From the NCBI GenBank assembly GCA_965112155.1, contig OZ218101.1: 64,000 nt of DNA. One strand, given 5' to 3'. This stretch comes from Podarcis liolepis (taxonomy: Eukaryota). How positions within the stretch are numbered: position 1 is the stretch's first letter; each line of letters begins with the position of its first letter. The notes under the pieces are model-generated. The model saw nothing but the letters and a program-made list of their open reading frames with translations, ran no database searches and was not told where the DNA came from. Position numbers and translations under genes: made by a program. Positions 9,308-41,762 of this stretch are shown piece by piece.

Positions 9308-9338
9308 CTCACATGACACAGAGAAAGCCATGTACAGA

Positions 9339-9344
9339 AATAAA
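9339..9344 (+). terminator. DNHD1 polyadenylation signal AATAAA
   Basis: AATAAA about 30 nt after the stop codon. Confidence 0.7.
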
Positions 9345-9515
9345 GTGATATATTCTTAGTGTGTACAAAATGCAGACTTGGGTGCTCTGCCGCTCGGCCA
9401 GCCGCCCAGGGCCCTGCAGCCAAGCTATAAATAAGGTGCGCGGCCAGGCACCACTCACTCGCGCCTGGGGGGATGCCCGTCCCGCAGGCCCCCCCTGCCA
9501 GTCCAGCCCTCCTCC

Positions 9516-12500
9516 TCATTTCAGGTCCACGTCAAAATCCAAAACAAGCAGCTTGGTCTCCTCAGTCCCGTTGCGGCTTCCCACGGCACACACCAGCTTT
9601 GTGTTGGAGGCCCGGATGCGCCAGACCACCCCCCCGCTGCCGCCACTCTCCAGCGCCACCAGGTTGCGCACAAACTCGCCCGTCTTGAGGTCCCACAGCT
9701 TGACGGTGCCGTCGTCTGAGCTGGTCACCACAAACTTGGAGCTGAACTGGAGGCAGGTGACGGCACTCTGGTGCTTGCTGGGACCTGCAGAAGGGGGGCA
9801 AAGAAGGTGAGAAGCAGCCATCAGCTGCCCTGCCCAGCCGCCTCTTCCCGGAGGACGCCCCTGGTGGCAGGCCTCTGCCCAGAGGGAAAAAAACCTCCCC
9901 CCGCCCCCCAGGACTTTGTGAGGTCCAATGGGGAGTTTCAGCTCCCTGCAGCCCAGCCAGCTGCCCGCAGCACCCACCTTGCAAGGTCTGCAGACACTGG
10001 CCCGTCTTGATGTCCCAGATCTTGACCGTGGAGTCGGCGTTGCCAGAGACCAGGATGTTGTCGCGCAGCTCCATGCCGCTGGTCAGCGACTGGTGCCCCA
10101 TCAAGGTGTGCAGGCAGTTGCCGCTCTCGGCGTCCCACACGCGGATCGAGGTGTCCAGGGAGCCGCTCACAATGTGGGTCCCATCAAACTGCGCAAGAGA
10201 GGGGTGGGAGGAGTGAGGGGCTGTGCGACTCGGGGGGTGGGGAGGGAAGGGGTCGGGGTCCCTCACCTGCAGGGAGTAGACGCGATTGGTGTGGCCTTGC
10301 AAGGTGTGGATGCAGCTCTCCGTCTCGGGGTCCCAGACCTTGACCGTGTAGTCGTAGGCGCCACTCACCACCTTGTGCCCGTCGTACTGGACGCAGCGGA
10401 CGGCGGCCACGTGCCCCATCAGCACGTGCAGGCACTGCCCTGTCTCGATGTCCCAGAGGCGGAGGGTGGCATCCCGGGACCCGCTCACCACCCTGCCCAG
10501 GGAGGAGAGACAAGCAGCTTGAGTCCCAGGCAGGAGGGGCAGGAGGGGCCCTGGAGCGACTCCCCCCCCACCTACCTGCTGCCGTGGAGGTGCATGCAGC
10601 GCACGGTGGAGGTGTGCCCGTAGAGGGTGTGCACGCACTCGCCCGTGTCCGCGTTCCACACCTTGAGGGTGCGGTCTGTTGAGCCGCTGATGACGATGTT
10701 GTCCCTCATCTGGGAAGACCAGACGCCCCCCGTGTGCCCCACCAGGGTCTGAACGCACTGCAGGAGGAGGAGGAGGATGCTCAGAGCCAGGGAAGGCGGG
10801 GCCACAGCCAGCCCCGCCCACAGCACCATTTCCCAGACTCACCTCCCCGGTGACAGCCGACCACACCTTGAGCGTGTTGTCATCTGAGCCGCTCACAATG
10901 CGGTTGCCGCAAAACTGGAGGCAGGTGATGACGTGGTCATCGTGGCCCTTCAGAACCTGGTCCAGGGAGAGAATGAGCAGGCCAGCCGGCATCACCCTGC
11001 GCCCCCTTTCTGCGGTTGAGGGAAGGGGCGGCTTCCTCCCCAAGCCCAGTGGCCTTGAGTCTTCCAAGGCTTGAGACCAGGCCCAGCGGTCAGGAGCTGG
11101 CATCAAGCAGGCGGACTTCAAATTCAGCAAGGGCTGGAGGCTCAGCCACAGTGACAGCCCCAATTCAAGGAGCAACCAAGTCTCTCCCCCCCCCCCCCCA
11201 TTTGTGAATAGCCAGAATAATTCTACCTTCTGGATCTTCTTTGCCAGAAGTCAAAGGTGCTTGCCTGGTCCACCTAGCTCAGCAGCAGCAGCAGCAGCTC
11301 TCAAGAGTATGGGGCACATGTCTGTCCCAGCCCACCACTGAGCCCTGGCCCCTGCCTGGTATAGGACAGGGACCCAGCTGGGCACCCAGGCGTTGGGTTG
11401 CTCTTCCTCCAGAGCCTGCTCTTTGGTCCCCATCGTGCAGCCACCCCAGAGATCCCAGAGTAGTGTCTTAGCCCATGACGAGGTGCGCAAACCCCGCACC
11501 ACGTCACCCCAATGGGTGGGGTCAAGGGAGGTCCCCTACCTTGGGGGGGCGGGCATCCCCGCCACGCCAGTTCATGTCGATTCGGTGCTGCCGCAGGAAG
11601 GCCAGTTTCCAGGGGCTGTACATGAAGCCTGGGCTGAGCAGCCGGCGCTTGCGCAGACTCAGGGGCTCCTCGATACCTGCAGGAGGCAGAAGCGGCTGTG
11701 AGAGGGAGGAGGCCCAAGGGCAGCCGGGAAGCAACACTGGGCAGGAGCTGAGCCTCACCTGCATCGCGGCACTTCTCCCGCCACAACAGGTTGTCCTCGG
11801 CCAAAATCCGCCAGTAGCGACAGGTCTGCGCCGCCCGGAGCAGGTCCCGCGGCTCCAGGAACGAGAGCACATAGAGCGCCAACTGCAAAAGATTTCCTCC
11901 CGTGAATGGCAAGCCTGGGCAGCTTCTCACGTCCACCACAGCAATGTGGAGACTTTGCCATCTAGGTGACCTTTCACCCTCACCAGCCGAACATCTGAAG
12001 CAGCCGTCCAATGCTCCTCCAAGAAGAGAGCTGGCTCAGAGCCTGTGGTCCACACCCTCCTCCCACACAGCAGCTGTCAGGGCCACTGTGGCCACACAAT
12101 CCCAAACTGCTTCACAGCCCCCAAGGCCTCTCCTGCCTTTCCAATCCAGCACAGAGTCTGCGGCTGAGCTCCCTGTCCTGACCATCTGGGCCCATCTCTT
12201 GCCCTCCCAGCATCCTCCTGCCATTTCTTATTGTCCTCCTTGCCACTCCCGTCTGATTTGGCTTTCTTTGGATGCGTTACAGAGGGCTCCCTATGACACA
12301 ACTTCTGCTCTAAAAATGGTAGCCTGCACCTCACAAGGGAAGTTCTGCTTTGGCCTGGAGAGGCAGGGAGAGAGCGTCCATTACATTAGCTCGTGTATGC
12401 GGACGTTCAAGCGAGCTAAATCCATTGACCGCTGTCTCTTCCCTCCCTTGGCATCTTTGACAGCCTCCCCTTAATGTTTGTATATTTAAAAGTTTAGAAA

Positions 12501-15500
12501 AAGGAGCTGTTGACTGAAAGTGTTCAGCCCGTCTGCCACTTATGACAACACCATTTAAAACCATTTAACAATCACTTTCAAAAAACCAAGATTTTGTACT
12601 CTGCATCTGTTTACATTTTGAAGCCTAATTTGAGCATAAAGCCCAACTTTTGCCTTTTGGATCCCAGAGGCCTGATTTCCCTGCCCAATTACCACCCACC
12701 CACTTCCTCTTCTCCACCACTTTCTGCTGCACATTGAGCAGCTGCCCTGGAGAGACAAGGCCTGGGACCCCTGCCGCTTGCTCTTGGCCAGGCTCTCTCC
12801 CACCCTCCCTCTCTGGGGCTGATTCGTTCTTCCTCCCTCTTCCAACGCCCTCTGCTGCTGCTCCTTCCCTTGCCTGTCTCATTCCTTTTTCTCCTCTTTG
12901 GCAGGATCTGAACTCTGGCTCTTAGCTTCTCACCAGGCCTTCAGGTTCTCCGATAACTTTGATTCTTGCCGTTAAAAGTTTCCCAAGGCCTTGTAATCAA
13001 ATCAAATAGCTCCTTCTCTGATGTGTCTCATCTCCTGCTAAAGCAACTGGCTCTACTCCATTTTCCTGCTGGTACCACATTTGCACTTCAGATAAAGTTC
13101 TCTTGTTCCCGTCTCTCTCTGTTACTTCATCCTAGTGTTTCTGTGAGGTTTCATGCACACTTTAAAAATGTGTAGCTGGTATGAATAGTTCTGACTCTTA
13201 TTTGTTTTAGACACAGGTAGGTAGCCGTGTTGGTCTGACGCAGTCGAAATAAAAATTAAAAAATAAAATTGTCCAATACTGCCTTATAGAGCAACTAAGT
13301 TTGTTCTGGTATAAGCTTCTGTGTGCATGCGCACTTCTTCGCTTCTTTTACAACTACCTCTCGTGTCCCCTTGTCCCCCCTCTTGACTATGGCTCGGATT
13401 CTGATCTCCTGACCTGTTGCTCAAGGCTTCCTAACAACACCCTGCAGGCTCAGTCTCCCACCAACACCTTCGGCCAACATCTCCCCACTGTCCTCTCTCG
13501 GCTGCCCTGCATTCTTCCTCCGAGGGCCCCCACCCCCCAAGACACTCACCTCTTTGGGAAGCAGCGATATGAAATCGCGCTGGAATTGGGGCTCAATCAC
13601 TTGCATCATGTGCTTGATCTGAGGCGGCTCACAGCCGTCAATGAGCTCATCCAGAGCCAGCAGCTTCTCTGGGCCGCTCCAGCGCTGGCGGGAGAAAGGA
13701 GTAAGGGGAGATCAAGCCCAAAAGCCAGGACTGCAGCCCGTCTCTGCGCCAGAACCAAGGCCACAAAGCAGCCCATAAAAGCAATCAAGGCAAAAGCTTT
13801 GTAGCTTTCTAAATGTTGAAACACCACCAATGCATCAGCTCACTTTTAAGATCAAACCCCTAAAACAAAATAGGAAATGAGAAAGACACCACAGCACAAC
13901 ATCTGCCAAATGCCGTGGAAAAAGGCCTTTGCCGAATGTCAGAAGGTCAGCTGCCAGCCAGCCAGAAAGCAGAGCCCTGCTCTGGCTCCAGCCGAAGGCC
14001 TCAGGCATGACACACAGACAGGCGCCTCTGCCTGCCGCTCACCTGGAAAGTGCGCAGCCAGTCCTGCAGCTCAGGGGGTGGTGTCATTGGGGGGACATGC
14101 CGGCAGCGCGCCTGGCCTGCCTTGGCGTTCCGCAAATCCCCAAAGGTGGCCGTGGGGCTAGCGACACAGGGGCCCAGCACTCTGGAGAGGAAGCAAGTAT
14201 GTCAGGAGAATGCCATGGCCAGGGGCCCAAGTCAAGAGTCCTGCTGGAGACAGACCCCCTGTCTCCCCCGGCACCTTGCAGGAGCTCCCAAGCGCCACCC
14301 GCAACCTCCTCACCTGCCCCTCTCCGAGCCCTTGCACAGCTTCTTGCCAGGCGACTGGGCTCTGCCATCCGGGCCGCTCTCTGACTTGCGCTTCATCTGC
14401 AATGCAAAGAGATGGGGCGGATCCAGGAAACCCTTCAGCTCCGCAAGAAGACAGGCTATGCACTGCACGCAGCACCCCCTCCTGATGCACAGCGCTGCAT
14501 CAGGTCAAGTGGGGACCCTTCTTGCCGCCTCCACCGCACAGCAGCCATGCCAGGACCCCCATGCCTCCTGCCTCCCCAAAAGACTGGAAGGTTGAACACT
14601 TTCTCTCAGAACACAGATCTACAAACTGTGCTTTGGGAGAACAACCTCGTAAGGGCAGGAGGTGGGGAAGAAAGACGCAGCATGCAGCAGCCCTCTCCCC
14701 ACCTGACGGCCTTTGCCTGTCATCCTTGGAGCCTTGATGGCCAGAACACACCCGAGAATCACAAGAGCCTGCTGGGTGCGGCCAGGCCCATCAAGTAAAG
14801 ATAAAGGACCCCAGTTTAAGTCCAGTCAAAGGTGACGATGGGGTGCTGTGCTCATCTCACTTCACCCTGAGGGAGCCGGTGTTTGTCCACAGACAGTTTT
14901 TCCAGGTCATGTGGCCAGCAGGACTAAACCGCTTCTGGCACAACCGAACACAGTGACGGAAATCAGAGCGCACGGAAATGCCATTTACCTTCCTGTCACA
15001 GAAGTACCAATTTATGTACTTGCACTGGCATTCTCTCAAACTGCTAGGTTGGCAGAATCTGGGACAAAGCAACAGGAGCTCAGCCCATTGTGCAGATTCA
15101 AAAAGGGATGTGAATGGGAGTGTGGTCTAAACCACACTGACCCTCTTGGGCTTGCTGATCAGAAGGCCCGTCCAGTCCAGCCCTCTGTCCCCACAGTGGC
15201 CAACCAGGTGCCCATTAAGGAAACCCCCAGGCACAATCTGCCCAAGAACAACACTCCCCCCACCCCTGGTCACCTGTCCAGCACCTGCTTTTCAGAGGCA
15301 TCGCTGCCTCCTACTGCGCAGGGCAGAGCATGGTTAGCCATAGTGGCTAGCTGCCCCCAACAGCCCCTCCTCCATGAACTGCAGACTTAAAATCTGCACA
15401 GGAAAAATGTGCTCCGACTTCAAAAATTCCTCCACTGAGGAGGGAAAAAAAGATATAACAAACACGGCATTAAATTCAAGAGCTCCCCCCCCCCACTCGT

Positions 15501-16667
15501 TTTGGTCAGCACAGTCCCTTGGCTGCACCCCTGAGAAACGGTCAGCACAAGCACTGATGCCACAGACATTTCCAGGAGGAACCTGAAGGTCCTGGCCAGC
15601 CTCCCTGGGCCAAAGAGAAGACCAGCCCCCTGGCATGGACACTCTCAGCTGCTGCTGCACCCCGGAGCCCCAGTCCTTTCTCTGGGCTCCCTTCCCCAGG
15701 CAGCTCCCGAAGAGGAGAAGCGTCCGCTGGATCTGGCCCACCCCGGGCAGCCTCCTGCTCTGCCGGGGTCTCCCTCCTCCGGTTCTCTCCCCCCGCAGCC
15801 CCTTCTTCACCTTCGGCCGCGTGTGCCGGATGAGGCCGCCGCCCTCCGTCCGCTCCAGGTAGTCGATCCAGCGCTCGTCCACCGTGTAGTAGAAGTAGAC
15901 GTCCCCGCCGCCGCCGCTGCCGCCGCTCTCCTCGCCATCGCTGCTGCCGCCGCCGCTCGTCTCATCCTCGGAGTCGGGAGCGCCCGGCGGGCAGGAGCTG
16001 CCCGGCTCCTCCTCCTCCGGCTCCGCCTCGGCCGCCAAGCAGGCCGGCGCCCAGCTCTCCCGCTGCCCGGGACGCGGCGGCGACTGAGCCGCCTCCTCGC
16101 CCGGAGCCTGCGGGGGGAAGCGGGCCGCGGGGTTGAGCGAGCCTCGGCCCAGCCGCCCGCCCCCCGCCCGGCTCTCTTCCGCCCGCCTCCCGCCCGCCAA
16201 GCCCACCTCGGGCGCCGGACAGGCGGCTCCGGCGGCTCCTCGGGCGGGCTCCGGCTGCTGCTGCGGCGGCGGCTCGCAGGTCATCCGCTGGCTGTTCAGC
16301 TCCAGGATCCGCGCCGTGATCCCCTTGACGCGCAGCAGGTCGTCCAGGGAGGCGAAGCCCTTCAGCTCCTGGCGGGAGAGGGGCGCCCCGTCACGCACCG
16401 AGAGGAGGGGAGAGGAGCCCCCGGAAAGCCCCCCCCCCAAAGCGGGGCCCGGGGAGGGAAGCAGCCCCCCTCCCGGTGGGGGGAGGGAAGGGAGCGGGCC
16501 CCTCGGACGCCTGGGTCCCTCACCTCCCGCTTGCGCACGATGCCCCGGGCCCGGCGGCGCCCGATGCCGACCAGCGCCCGCTCCAGCTCCGCCACGCAGG
16601 CCCGGTTGATGTCCAGCTTGCCCCCGCCGCCGCCGCCGGGGCCCGGCCCGCCCGCCGATCCCGACAT
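9516..16667 (-). CDS. FBXW7 paralogue with N-terminal ComEA-like helix-hairpin-helix domain (HhH-D domain-F-box-WD40), 740 aa
   Basis: 13 GT-AG exons: 16667-16524, 16368-16207, 16107-15811, 14396-14314, 14181-14043, 13684-13550, 11882-11759, 11676-11540, 10956-10843, 10757-10576, 10492-10267, 10188-9978, 9784-9516; total 2223 nt, in frame. FBXW7-like motifs: [67 protein letters not shown]...[13 protein letters not shown]. Exons 1-2 encode [55 protein letters not shown]. Confidence 0.9.
13214..13340. mobile_element. Penelope-like element terminal fragment
   Basis: GTAGCCGTGTTGGTCTG...A-rich...AACTAAGTTTGTTCTGGTATAAGCTT...CACTTCTTC resembles reptile Penelope termini. Confidence 0.55.
14796..15102 (-). 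mobile_element. Sauria SINE (degenerate)
   Basis: Reverse complement of the Sauria SINE tail and body (GGTCATGTGGCCAGC, AACTGCTAGGTTGGCAGAA); similar to the copy at 39028. Confidence 0.7.
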
Positions 16668-16736
16668 CGCCGCTGCCGCCGCCGCCGCCCGGACTCGGCC
16701 GGACTGCGCTTGCGCCCCCGCCGCCGCCCCTCCCTC

Positions 16737-16856
16737 AACTACAGCCCCCAGCAGGCATTGCGAGACGAGACGAGACACTTCCGCTTCGAGAGAAAAGCGC
16801 TTTATTCAGAGCGAGGCGGCGGCGGCCCAGACGAAGCCCCGCCCCCCGTGGCGTCA
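16737..16856 (-). promoter_or_regulatory. Predicted core promoter of the FBXW7-like gene (ZNF143/THAP11-type SBS, ETS, GC box, half-CRE)
   Basis: Plus-strand text: AACTACAGCCCCCAGCAGGCATTGCG at 16737-16762 (ACTACA-extended Staf/ZNF143 motif), CACTTCCGC at 16776-16784, CCCCGCCCCC at ~16837-16846, GCGTCA at 16851-16856. Confidence 0.65.
16801..16806 (-). terminator. RRP8 polyadenylation signal AATAAA
   Basis: TTTATT on the plus strand, about 48 nt past the RRP8 stop. Confidence 0.75.
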
Positions 16857-19800
16857 CCGCCGCTTGTAGAGGCAGGGGCGGAGCGCCAGGCCCGGAAGAG
16901 CCCCTTCGCCCCGCCCCTTCCGCTTCGCCGCTTCCGCCTTGCGCAGCTCGAAGGTGAAGAAGTGGCTGCCCGTCACGTCCTGCAAGGAGAGGAGAGGAGA
17001 GGAGAGGGAAGGCCATGCGGAGGCGCGCGCGGGCCGGAGGGGACCTCGCGCGGCCCCCGGGAGGGAGGAGGGAGGGAGGGAGGGAGGAGACCCACCTTGC
17101 GGAGGAGCCGGAAGCCGAGCCGGGCCAGCGCCGCCCCGAAGGCCCGCACGTCCGGGAAGCGGCTGGCCACCTCGGCCACCAGGAGGGTCCCCCTGCGAGG
17201 AGAGACGGAGGGGGGAGGTCAGCCCGCGGGGCGGCAGGAAGGACCAGCGGGGAGGCTGAGCGAATCCTCCAGCCGGCAGAAGCATCCCTGAGCAGGACAT
17301 CCCCCCCCCCCGGTGTGTGTGTCAGGAGGGCACCTGCAGGACCCGGGAGGGGCTGGGAGAAGGCTTGGTCGGGGCCCCAAAGAGAGGGGCCCCAAATGCT
17401 ATAGGTCATTGTTTTTGCTGGTGCTTTGAATGGTTACCAATCATGTAATCCTTTCCCCCTAAGCAGTCCAGGGAACACTTGCTTCTTTTATTATTGCATT
17501 TCACGTCAGGAAACCTCAGAGGGTGCCTCAGAAACAGCCCCTTCCCACCTTCGGAAATTTAAAATGTCTCTTTTACAGTATTTCATGTCCTGTAACCCAG
17601 CCAGATGGGCCGGATACAAGCAATAAAATTATTATTATTATTATTACTATTATTATTCACAATGACCCAGAGCTGCTGCGTCGGATCCTGTGGCCGACAT
17701 GTAGCCACTGAGAGCCTTCCTTCTCTCTCCAGGGCTTCAGACCCAGGGGTCCTTCTCTGAGCTCTGCCTGGAGCTGCCATGGGTGGGTGTGAGTGGGTGA
17801 ACCCAAGACTTCTGCCTGGGAAGTCTCCACTCCCACCAAAGCTCTTCCTGACCAGAGAGTCACATCCTTCTCCTCGCGACTTGTTTTCAAAGGCAATTGA
17901 TGCCGAGGACTGATTTTAAAGGATGCAAGCAAACTTTAGATCAGGGGGGCTTCATGCATATTTTCAGGACTGTTTTGATACTGAAATAGAAAATACATAA
18001 ATAGTGGTATTTTCAATATTCAAGTTAGTTATGCTGAAATTTTGCTACTAAACAGATTTAGCTGATTCACTGCCTCAAGGCTCTTTGCAACCATCATTAA
18101 TTCATTGCCTAAATATTAATAAATGTATATTAACATAATCCTTTATTTTAGTAATATCTTTTGCTTAAGCTGTTGTTATTTCAGTTTTCTGTACAACACT
18201 TAAAAAGATTCTGACTATATCTCTATTAATATATTATTAATATTTTAATATTTCTGACTAGAAAACCCAGTCAGATGGGCAGAGTATTATTTTTATTATT
18301 AAGCAGCATAGGTATTAAATATCATCATCCCCATATGACAGCCATAGGTTTTGACTGAGCTGGCAGTGCCCTGATCAGCCATTTCACGTGTCCCCCTCCC
18401 TGCCACAGCCCCTCCCATGCCAGTGAGCCCAGGACCCCACAATTACCCAACTCGTAGCACACGGTTGGCCTCTTCCAAGATCTCCTGCAGGTTAGTACCC
18501 ATCAGTGCCAGGCAGAACACAGCCACGTCAACAGATTCATCATCCAGGGGGACCTGCACAGAGGGAGCAAAAAGAGGGAGGCACAATCGGAAAAGCATGT
18601 GTGTGAGGTAGTCATAGAATCATGGAGCTGGGAGGGACACCCAAGGGCCGTCTAGTCTAACCCCCTGGAATGTAGGAATCACACTCAATGCAGCCCTGAC
18701 ACGTGGCTGTCCAAGCTCTGCTTAAAAGCCTCCAGTGAAGCAACGCCCACCTGCATGGGCTCATCACACAGCTGTTCCCAAGCCTGGAGAAGGCAGGTGC
18801 TGTGAGGAGGCCCTCCCCCCAACCTACCTGGGCCATGTCGCAGACAATGACTCGGGGGTCCAGAGCCACCAGGTCAAAACAGTGGACTTTGTTCCGCACG
18901 CTGCGTGCCAGCATGCAGTCCCCGCAACCGAAATCTGCCACCACGAGTGATGCTGGTCTGTGAGGGGAGGGGCAAAGTTAGACCGTGCACCCATCCTGTC
19001 AAACACTTCTATACGTTAACTATGACATTGCAACACGCGCGGATGTTTGCTTAACCAGCACATGTTGAAGGGGGGGAGCCGGCCAATCCCCCCCCATCGT
19101 TACCTCTGACGCAGGTAGCGCACAAAGCGCTGCACAGGGTTTTCAGGCCACTGGGCCACCTGCCGGGCAAAGCCCCGGTGATACACTGCCAAGGCCTCAG
19201 GGTCATCCTGGAAGAGCTGGACCGCCTGCTGGCTGGAGGATGTGTAGAGCTGCTGGTTGATGAAGCGGAAGCGCGCAGACTCCAGCCGCTCCTCCATGCG
19301 CAGCCGCAGGGACGCTGCCCTTTCGCTGAGAGGTTCCTGGCCTGCTGGATCTTCCTGGCTGCTGGGGGGCTCCTCTGCTGCTGCTGCAGAGGCCAAAGGG
19401 GGCTCCTCGCGGCCCAGCCCTGCCTTGAACCTGTTCTGGCGACGCTTGTTCTTCTGGCGGTTCTTCCACTGTCTCCTGGTCAGCCGCTGCCTTGGCTCCT
19501 CCTCTGGGTCCTTTGCCCCAGCGCTCCTCTGCTTGCTGCTGGGCTCAGGGTCTCCACCTCCAGCCGCTTTGTCTGGACAGGGCAAGGACAGAGGTGCTCA
19601 GCCCTGGGCTCCATCGCTCCCCCTCTCTAGAGTCCAGGGCTCTGTGCACTGACTGCTGGTGGCCACAACCCTCTGGGGTTCCAGGCAGAGGACCAGCCCC
19701 CAGCCCACCCGGAGAGGCCCCCAGGGACTGAGATGCAGGGAAGGTTCCATAAGATTATAAGAGCCTAGTCCAGCATCATGGCCTTACAGTGGACCACCCT

Positions 19801-39813: not shown

Positions 39814-40716
39814 GTAATGCATGGGCTCCTTGCATTCAAGCTGGAGGGCCAGGAAAGGGACTGATCTCTGCTCAAGATGCCAGAGATCTTCTGCCAGTCC
39901 GACAGCCCTGGGCTGCAAGGGCCGGCAAGCTGATCCGGCCAAAAGCAGGACTCACTTGCACCCGACACCTCAGAACACCCTGCTTGGTCACAGGCTCCTG
40001 CTAGACACACATTGAAGCTCTCTGAGCACTGAGAAGCAGGGGCTGCCCCCCCCCCCGGTGCACCTGCATGGTTTGGGGTTTCCGTCACACGCAAAAGAGG
40101 CACACCACCTTCCCCCGGCCTCTGACGCCTGAGCTGCGTGTCACCAGGACCCACCTTCTTCCTGTGACTAATTTGTTTTGAAGTGCTTTTAAGGTTGCTT
40201 ATTAAATTGTCGCAAGCTGTGACCTGATGGTGAAATAAGAACAACTCCTGCAAGGACGCGTCATGCATCCCGGATGCTTCCTTCCGAAGGAAGTCCTTGG
40301 AGGCTTTTGACGCTGATGAAACACAAAAGGAGCCTGGCTGCAGGGTCAGAGGAACAGCCTGTCCCGTCAAGCACCCTCTTCTCACACCAGGGGAAGCCTG
40401 GAGGCAGGACGTGAGCACAGAAGCAAGGCTCTTCCTTCTCCACTTGGAGACGGCGAGGCTGTGGCCCTCAGAGGCCCCAGGGCCCTACACACAGGCTGAG
40501 CATGAGTGGAAGGGCCCAGGAGATGCTGCTTCCCTGCGGAGCTTCCAGGGTGAGGAGTCTTGCAGAGAGAAGTGCAGCCTTCCATGTGTCCCATTCTCAA
40601 CTCAGTCTAAATGCTACGGCTGCTTTGCAAGCAGCTTGATGACATCATTTCCCAGTGGATACTGAGGAAGGAAAGACAAAAGACTGGTCCCTTTTCCCTA
40701 CGCCTAGCTGTTTGCT

Positions 40717-41762
40717 GTTTGCAAACTATGGCAAGTTCTTAAAGAAATGGGAGTGCCTGATCATCTCATCTGTCTCCTGCGAAATCTCTATGTGGGACAA
40801 GAAGCTACAGTTAGAACTGGATATGGAACAACTGATTGGTTCCAAATTGGGAAAGGAGTACGGCAAGGCTGTATATTGTCTCCCTGCTTATTTAACTTAT
40901 ATGCAGAATTCATCATGCGAAAGGCTGGGCTGGATGAATCCCAAGCCGGAATTAAGATTGCCGGAAGAAATATCAACAACCTCAGATATGCAGATGACAC
41001 AACCTTGATGGCAGAAAGTGAAGAGGAATTAAAGAACCTTTTAATGAGGGTGAAAGAGGAGAGCGCAAAATATGGTCTGAAGCTCAACATCAAAAAAACG
41101 AAGATCATGGCCACTGGGCCCATCACCTCCTGGCAAATAGAAGGGGAAGAAATGGAGGCAGTGAGAGATTTTACTTTCTTGGGCTCCATGATCAGTGCAG
41201 ATGGTGACAGCAGTCACGAAATTAAAAGACCCCTGCTTCTTGTGAGAAAACCAATGACAAACCTAGACAGCATCTTAAAAAGCAGAGACATCACCTTGTC
41301 AACAAAGGTCCATATAGAAAAAGCTAAGGTTTTCCCAGTAGTGATGTATGGAAGTGAGAGCTGGACCATAAAGAAGGCTGATCGCCGAAGAATTGATGCT
41401 TTTGAATTATGGTGCTGGAGGAGACTCTTGAGAGTCCCATGGACTGCAAGAAGATCAAACCTCTCCATTCTGAAGGAAATCAGCCCTGAGCGCTCACTGG
41501 AAGGACAGATCGTGAAGCTGAGGCTCCAATACTTTGGCCACCTCATGAGAAAAGAAGACTCCCTGGAAAAGACCCTGATGTTGGGAAAGATGGAGGGCAC
41601 AAGGAGAAGGGGACGACAGAGAATGAGATGGTTGGATGGTGTTCTTGAAGCTACTAGCATGAGTTTGATCAAACTGCGGGAGGCAGTGGAGGACAGAAGT
41701 GCCTGGCGTGCTCTGGTCCAGGGGGTCACGAAGAGTCGGACACGACTAAACGACTAAACAAC
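40717..41762 (+). mobile_element. BovB (RTE) LINE, 5'-truncated, with uninterrupted 336-aa RT C-terminal ORF
   Basis: ORF 40747-41757 with GVRQGCILSP and LRYADDT motifs; 11-bp TSD AGCTGTTTGCT at 40706-40716 and 41763-41773. Confidence 0.95.

Follow-up and report, generated by a model that had tools for sequence, protein, structure and literature searches.

We describe a gene of the FBXW7 family in a stretch of 64,000 nt from the lizard Podarcis liolepis (assembly GCA_965112155.1, contig OZ218101.1), here called the window, in which positions count from the first letter. FBXW7 is a heavily studied tumour suppressor that docks on SKP1-CUL1, dimerises and binds phosphodegrons, and the usual view gives it one gene copy and isoform-specific N-termini without structure. 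The gene in the window occupies positions 9516-16667 on the minus strand and has a product of 740 aa. On balance, we consider it probable that this is an intact, spliced paralogue of FBXW7, likely born when the genome was first duplicated (1R), that keeps an ancestral double helix-hairpin-helix domain, (HhH)2, and likely serves as a DNA-tethered SCF (SKP1-CUL1-F-box) receptor. Automatic annotation of the gene in RefSeq is already known, and the ohnolog alone is an ordinary lost ohnolog; the novelty lies in an HhH domain of ancestral origin and in the trace of it left in FBXW7-alpha.

An earlier reading of the same DNA, made from sequence only, had placed an FBXW7-like gene at 9516..14396. Its ten exons (83, 139, 135, 124, 137, 114, 182, 226, 211 and 269 nt) are real and match exactly on the minus strand, with GT-AG introns throughout and a reading frame that runs open to a TGA at 9516-9518. 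The 5' end of that span does not stand: a splice acceptor precedes the ATG of the 83-nt exon, which is not a first exon, and three coding exons upstream (here A, B and C), all of phase 0, had been overlooked. Contigs from four sequencing runs of four studies, probably RNA although that is only guessed, join all nine introns of the ten-exon series, eight of them in 4/4 runs and one in 3/4, and the joint from exon C to the 83-nt exon (15811 to 14396) is present in 4/4. Exon A is found in full-length orthologue proteins. The closest database protein, from Podarcis muralis, is 97.6% identical over 735 aligned residues, and the whole open reading frame (ORF) of some orthologues lies on Logan contigs of 2.5-3.5 kb (P0016, P0415, P0436), which suggests that these contigs are spliced transcripts. 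The gene is compact and GC-rich (7 kb; GC at third codon positions 0.88). Its parts are as follows.

16501..17000: CpG island (GC 0.74, CpG observed/expected 1.03) containing the last exon of RRP8, its AATAAA and the start of the paralogue
16524..16667, minus strand: exon A, 144 nt with the ATG at 16667; N-terminal half of (HhH)2 (Pfam HHH_3, E=9e-5, profile positions 5-35)
16207..16368, minus strand: exon B, 162 nt; second half of (HhH)2 (HHH_3 profile positions 38-61, E=0.054 alone)
15811..16107, minus strand: exon C, 297 nt; an acidic linker of low conservation, and the conserved aromatic motif YFYYT..ERWIDYL
14314..14396, minus strand: 83-nt exon, the first exon common to FBXW7; basic motifs that we take to resemble a nuclear localisation signal
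14043..14181, minus strand: 139-nt exon (canonical counterpart 142 nt); linker, and the beginning of the D domain
13550..13684, minus strand: 135-nt exon; D (dimerisation) domain and start of the F-box; 93% identity to the canonical exon
11759..11882, minus strand: 124-nt exon; F-box (Pfam F-box-like, E=6e-15)
11540..11676, minus strand: 137-nt exon; helical linker from F-box to propeller
10843-10956, 10576-10757, 10267-10492, 9978-10188 and 9516-9784, minus strand: five WD40 exons; propeller whose phosphodegron pocket is intact, and the stop codon (9516-9518)
9333..9515, minus strand: 3' untranslated region (UTR) as far as contigs go, with contig pieces beginning at 9333 in two runs

The CpG island is likely the promoter of the paralogue, and the AATAAA of RRP8 (16806-16801, minus strand) lies about 135 nt ahead of the paralogue's ATG. 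Between exons B and C, the intron of 99 nt (16108-16206) is open in frame, retained in Podarcis model P0001 and spliced in P0450, and may be an exitron. In 21 database proteins, from lizards, a sea turtle and many birds, the penultimate exon of RRP8 (donor 17096) is fused in frame to exon B (acceptor 16368), skipping the last exon of RRP8 and exon A, with phase 0 on both sides in the window; read-through transcription that is conserved, or an error that recurs in annotation, would account for these fusions. A high-copy repeat with depth in the thousands in all four runs occupies 14865-15235 in the long intron. At the other end of the gene, the 3' UTR contig end (9333) overlaps the stop (9307) and AATAAA (9339, plus strand) of the neighbouring dynein gene, tail to tail.

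The receptor core of FBXW7 is complete in the paralogue. An F-box followed by a WD40 propeller is found by Pfam, in the structural model and by Foldseek, and 12/12 checked positions of the phosphodegron pocket are the same as in canonical FBXW7, both in the window gene and in 18/18 relatives. The pocket arginines R465, R479 and R505 are named in PMC6486556.

Ahead of this core lies the HhH domain. Exons A and B are consecutive halves of Pfam HHH_3 (PF12836), each below cut-off alone, and full-length orthologues carry precomputed PF12836 over the whole domain. The best matches in PDB are EEPD1 (4e-10), ComEA (5e-4) and KIF22 (0.04). A model of a Podarcis orthologue with an identical domain, folded from a 54-row alignment, shows four HhH helices at a predicted local distance difference test (pLDDT) of 95-97, a disordered linker and an Fbw7-like core; a shark copy folded from its sequence alone gave no usable N-terminus (mean pLDDT 51). 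Nine rows shown from the ESM Atlas all carry HHH_3 at scores below 0.9 and serve as a lead only. HhH identity between the lizard and the lungfish and non-lacertid tetrapods is 74-90%, with 23-34% in the linker, and identity to sharks and rays is 63-65%, the adjacent linker ranging over 13-34% across comparisons. Because the domain is so much better conserved than the linker beside it, we conclude that it is under strong purifying selection. Its first hairpin reads GIG, the vertebrate domain is basic (K+R 11-17 vs D+E 8-10), and a cluster of arginines follows directly after the first hairpin. DNA tethering by this domain seems somewhat more likely than not.

The 30-aa aromatic motif at the end of exon C (15811-15900, minus strand) shows 70-100% identity over the span from lungfish to lizards and birds, less in sharks, and is predicted to be disordered. 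It is likely a short binding motif.

The HhH domain is older than the paralogue. A profile search of 1.84 billion representatives, with follow-ups, found FBXW7 proteins that combine HhH with F-box and WD40 in three named cnidarians, two molluscs, the brachiopod Lingula, seven crustaceans and the tunicate Styela; seven of these invertebrates were outside the training alignment, and PF12836 is precomputed on invertebrate HhH-FBXW7 proteins among the matches listed. As the domain occurs at the same position in cnidarians and in both bilaterian branches, one origin followed by several losses is the simplest account, and we are confident that the domain is ancestral to animal FBXW7.

If so, the canonical gene has lost it, and a trace remains. 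The lizard's canonical FBXW7 lies on contig C9, where exon-half profiles found no intact HhH exon in 250 kb around the locus. We used these profiles because a genome-wide PF12836 scan missed even the split domain of the window, so its silence at C9 is uninformative. Upstream of the alpha exon no homologue of exon A was found, the best of 1,888 donor-ended windows scoring 6.7 vs 118 for exon A itself. The lizard alpha exon is 576 nt long, of phase 0-0 and free of stops, with its acceptor 69 nt before the annotated ATG. Its first 32 codons, 23 of them annotated as 5' UTR, give an ungapped alignment with the beginning of exon B, and the two exons hold the same register from their acceptors. With profiles of the HhH second half these codons score 44.0 (vertebrate-only), 21.2 (invertebrate-only) and 31.8 (all), top of 103,597 windows in each case (next best 21.3, 12.3 and 15.3), and 0/100,000 shuffles reached the score, in an ungapped-profile test that was devised after the match was seen. 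With local hidden Markov models the remnant scores E=0.36 only. The hairpin glycine is replaced in it, and the leader codons are alike at 22/23 between the two canonical alpha sequences compared (C9 and the vertebrate model P0054). In the window, exons B and C together with the 99-nt intron that parts them make up 558 open nt, near the 576 nt of the alpha exon. Taken together, the remnant is in all likelihood homologous to the HhH second half. Upstream exons of human FBXW7 have been treated as non-coding (Liu 2012, PMC3498124).

An open, cysteine-rich stretch of 55 codons with a methionine and a good phase-0 donor lies 29 kb upstream of the canonical alpha exon (G000:C9:39,696,053, minus strand). 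It is one of several such stretches and a candidate front exon.

We built an IQ-TREE tree of 29 rows and 538 columns from stored proteins. It separates a paralogue clade (support 99/98; three chondrichthyans, lungfish, caecilian, newt, platypus, turtle, gull, gecko, snake and the window gene) from a canonical FBXW7 clade (100/99; three teleosts, lizard, duck and bat), and places the two together (100/99) within animal FBXW7. A 100-row survey tree agrees. The approximately unbiased (AU) test rejects a duplication after the shark split (p-AU 0.007), and tree and AU tests together place the duplication before the split of sharks from bony vertebrates and after that of the invertebrates. A fast-evolving FBXW7 copy of the goby Knipowitschia (P0060) groups with the canonical clade rather than with the paralogue and is probably a teleost-specific duplicate.

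The surroundings of the two genes tell a similar story. Exactly two FBXW7-family loci were found in the lizard genome by two exon searches. In the window the neighbours are the 3' end of a dynein heavy chain gene (plus strand, Dynein_C), RRP8 immediately upstream, and a long cadherin gene; domains and position are the basis for the names DNHD1, ILK and DCHS1. The canonical gene on C9 has exons of 83, 142, 135, 124, 137, 114, 182, 226, 211 and 269 nt, so the difference of 139 vs 142 nt claimed for the human gene holds against the lizard's own FBXW7, and its protein shares 443 identities with the paralogue over the 540-aa common core (82%). On C9, FHIP lies at 39.19 Mb, FBXW7 at 39.59, ARFIP at 39.82, TRIM at 40.03 and DCHS at 40.34; on C4, FHIP is at 105.90, TRIM at 106.67, ARFIP at 106.71, the paralogue at 106.77 and DCHS at 106.81 (FHIP, TRIM and ARFIP being called by Pfam family and position only). 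A second member of each of four neighbouring families (FHIP, arfaptin, NHL-repeat TRIM and cadherin) lies within 0.9 Mb of the paralogue, the C9 cadherin is the best paralogue of the window's cadherin, and five paralogue pairs tie the two regions within about 1.2 Mb. Elsewhere in the window, 40708-41754 holds a reverse transcriptase fragment (RVT_1, E=4e-20) that is probably a LINE (long interspersed nuclear element) remnant.

It is highly probable that the two genes are pre-gnathostome ohnologs. In the accessible part of Lamb 2021 (PMC8040251), GRIA2 (human 4:157.2 Mb) is assigned to quadrant 15A and APBB1 (11:6.395 Mb) to 15D, and quadrants (A,B) split from (C,D) at 1R; FBXW7 itself does not appear in that part of the table. 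Since the neighbours fall in A and D, the first round of genome duplication is the probable point at which the pair split. The sequence-only reading had proposed a second-round (2R) ohnolog: its genome-duplication sister is borne out by the tree and the five pairs, and its choice of round gives way to the likelier 1R.

That reading had also spoken of retention in this reptile, which is true of a far wider range. Paralogue copies occur in sharks, rays, lungfish, caecilians, salamanders, turtles, alligator, many birds including chicken, squamates and platypus. This range is a minimum, taken from members listed in word-limited homologue searches and in clusters, which hide members and were listed to at most 15 each. 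Among the matches listed (45, 51 and the best 120 of 172), no HhH-bearing copy is therian or from a ray-finned fish or frog; the third search covered proteins of 897-2560 aa, a range outside which amphioxus, echinoderm and cyclostome proteins of ordinary length fall. In the platypus model the HhH domain and the pocket are preserved, the stretch with motif and linker seems to be out of frame (26-28% identity), and the copy sits on a long branch (0.27). For humans, in a published gene table (PMC10208646) the row of DNHD1 (ending at 11:6,572,022) is directly followed by that of RRP8 (starting at 6,595,075), in line with the earlier claim that no human copy lies between them; this holds for the gene table, human DNA itself not having been searched. 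Based on this table and the absence of therian matches, with marsupials not checked, the paralogue was apparently lost on the therian line.

These parts can be joined into a mechanism. The F-box would dock on SKP1-CUL1, and the D domain would dimerise the protein and so present two HhH domains. The paired domains could then bind double-stranded DNA by avidity, without sequence specificity, and the propeller would capture phosphodegron substrates on chromatin or at damaged DNA, where known FBXW7 substrates work. After the duplication, the canonical copy would have lost exon A and come to start at a methionine near the end of the domain, with 23 relic codons upstream; the paralogue would have kept HhH and been lost later, apparently on the therian line. 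The (HhH)2 domains of EEPD1 bind DNA only in the full-length dimer (PMC12988330), and human FBXW7 reaches DNA damage through poly(ADP-ribose) (PAR) binding by its WD40 domain (PMC6486556). A broader scenario, which we hold in even balance, is that animal FBXW7 began as a ubiquitin-ligase receptor that binds DNA, that 1R split it into an HhH chromatin form and an HhH-less form, that therians lost the former, and that PAR recruitment replaces the tether.

Several observations pull against an ancestral, DNA-tethering ohnolog of this kind. For the joints A-B and B-C the basis is splice signals and orthologue proteins; neither is among the read joints displayed. HhH is present in 0/51 named insect proteins and in none of the models of a spider, a millipede and the snail Babylonia, which implies repeated loss. 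The second hairpin of vertebrate copies is GIT and not GhG (h, hydrophobic), and EEPD1 deviates as well; many invertebrate domains have a neutral or acidic balance of charges (K+R 5-11 vs D+E 6-10), and the N-terminal fragment of EEPD1 alone does not bind DNA (PMC12988330). As for the history, the tree holds no cyclostome, amphioxus, echinoderm or canonical shark rows and misplaces the tunicate among arthropods, and gene order is partly shuffled, with differing orientation, between the C4 and C9 regions. The points on hairpin and charge favour the main rival, which accepts the same gene and history and makes HhH a protein-protein, RNA-binding or localisation module. It gains further from the (HhH)2 heterodimerisation of XPF-ERCC1 mentioned in PMC12988330, and from a canonical remnant that stays 22/23 identical between the lizard and another vertebrate model despite its lost hairpin glycine. 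We nevertheless consider it unlikely, given that the nearest solved relatives are DNA-binding proteins and that the vertebrate domain is basic with arginines clustered after its first hairpin. The paralogue could also be a redundant FBXW7 back-up with HhH as an inert leftover: the pocket is that of FBXW7, the gene appears dispensable in therians, ray-finned fish and frogs contribute no copy among the matches listed, and the platypus branch is long. Strong purifying selection on HhH relative to the linker makes this improbable.

Alternatives to the genome-duplication origin fare no better. An origin by duplication of a block in stem vertebrates, apart from the whole-genome events, draws on the shuffled gene order and on a tree in which, for want of cyclostomes, the node is not tied to either 1R or 2R; the five pairs of paralogues inside about 1.2 Mb, together with human regions in quadrants A and D of paralogon 15 as judged by GRIA2 and APBB1 (Lamb 2021, PMC8040251), leave it very improbable. 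That the gene is a translocated orthologue, a retrocopy or a squamate-specific duplicate is next to impossible, and nothing speaks for any of the three. The separate canonical FBXW7 on C9, near ARFIP and TRIM members as the sequence-only reading had expected, rules out the first; all nine shared introns are kept, which rules out the second and upholds its statement that this is not a retrocopy; and the AU test rejects the third at p-AU 1e-92, the paralogue nesting nowhere inside squamate FBXW7.

In the literature we found no description of the paralogue's origin or of an HhH domain in FBXW7, within a coverage that leaves out most subscription papers and bioRxiv supplements, so that it may still be listed in an ohnolog table. 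The term FBXW7 does not occur in the text and 19 supplements of PMC5901865 or in PMC9178385; in their accessible parts, PMC10208646 lists only human FBXW7, as 'Non-elusive', and PMC2446394 tabulates Fbxw7 only with the Lbx2/Nkx3.2 region. Papers naming FBXW7 with helix-hairpin-helix, or Fbw7 with HhH, concern other topics, judged by their listings. On the broader scenario above, the human tumour suppressor FBXW7 would be the truncated sister, with a domain fossil in its alpha leader. An ancestral domain of nucleic-acid-binding type, a living sister and the relic would change how the nuclear and DNA-damage roles of FBXW7 are read. In birds, reptiles, salamanders and sharks, the paralogue may buffer the loss of FBXW7 function or be mistaken for FBXW7 in such work, and its presence in chicken and axolotl opens the proposed tether to direct test.

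With the 'elusive genes', ohnologs lost asymmetrically in mammals (PMC5901865; PMC10208646), the paralogue shares a GC-rich, gene-dense setting and the lineage-specific loss of one ohnolog. Automatic RefSeq and UniProt models called 'F-box/WD repeat-containing protein 7-like' are the same gene, predicted in many non-therian vertebrates, and database models of it are often misnamed FBXW7 or 'RRP8 isoform'. With FBXW7 itself (Fbw7, hCdc4; archipelago, SEL-10) the paralogue has exon phases and pocket arginines in common, and Skp1-Fbw7 structures are the best Foldseek matches of its model, at 87% identity. It differs in carrying an intact (HhH)2 and the aromatic motif in place of the alpha and beta first exons, and in adjoining RRP8 rather than ARFIP1. 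EEPD1, ComEA and KIF22 share the HHH_3 sequence and Pfam match and the four-helix model, and EEPD1 also has a flexible tether to a dimerising partner domain. Unlike these proteins, the paralogue has one predicted domain per chain, fused to an F-box/WD40 receptor, with GIT as its second hairpin.

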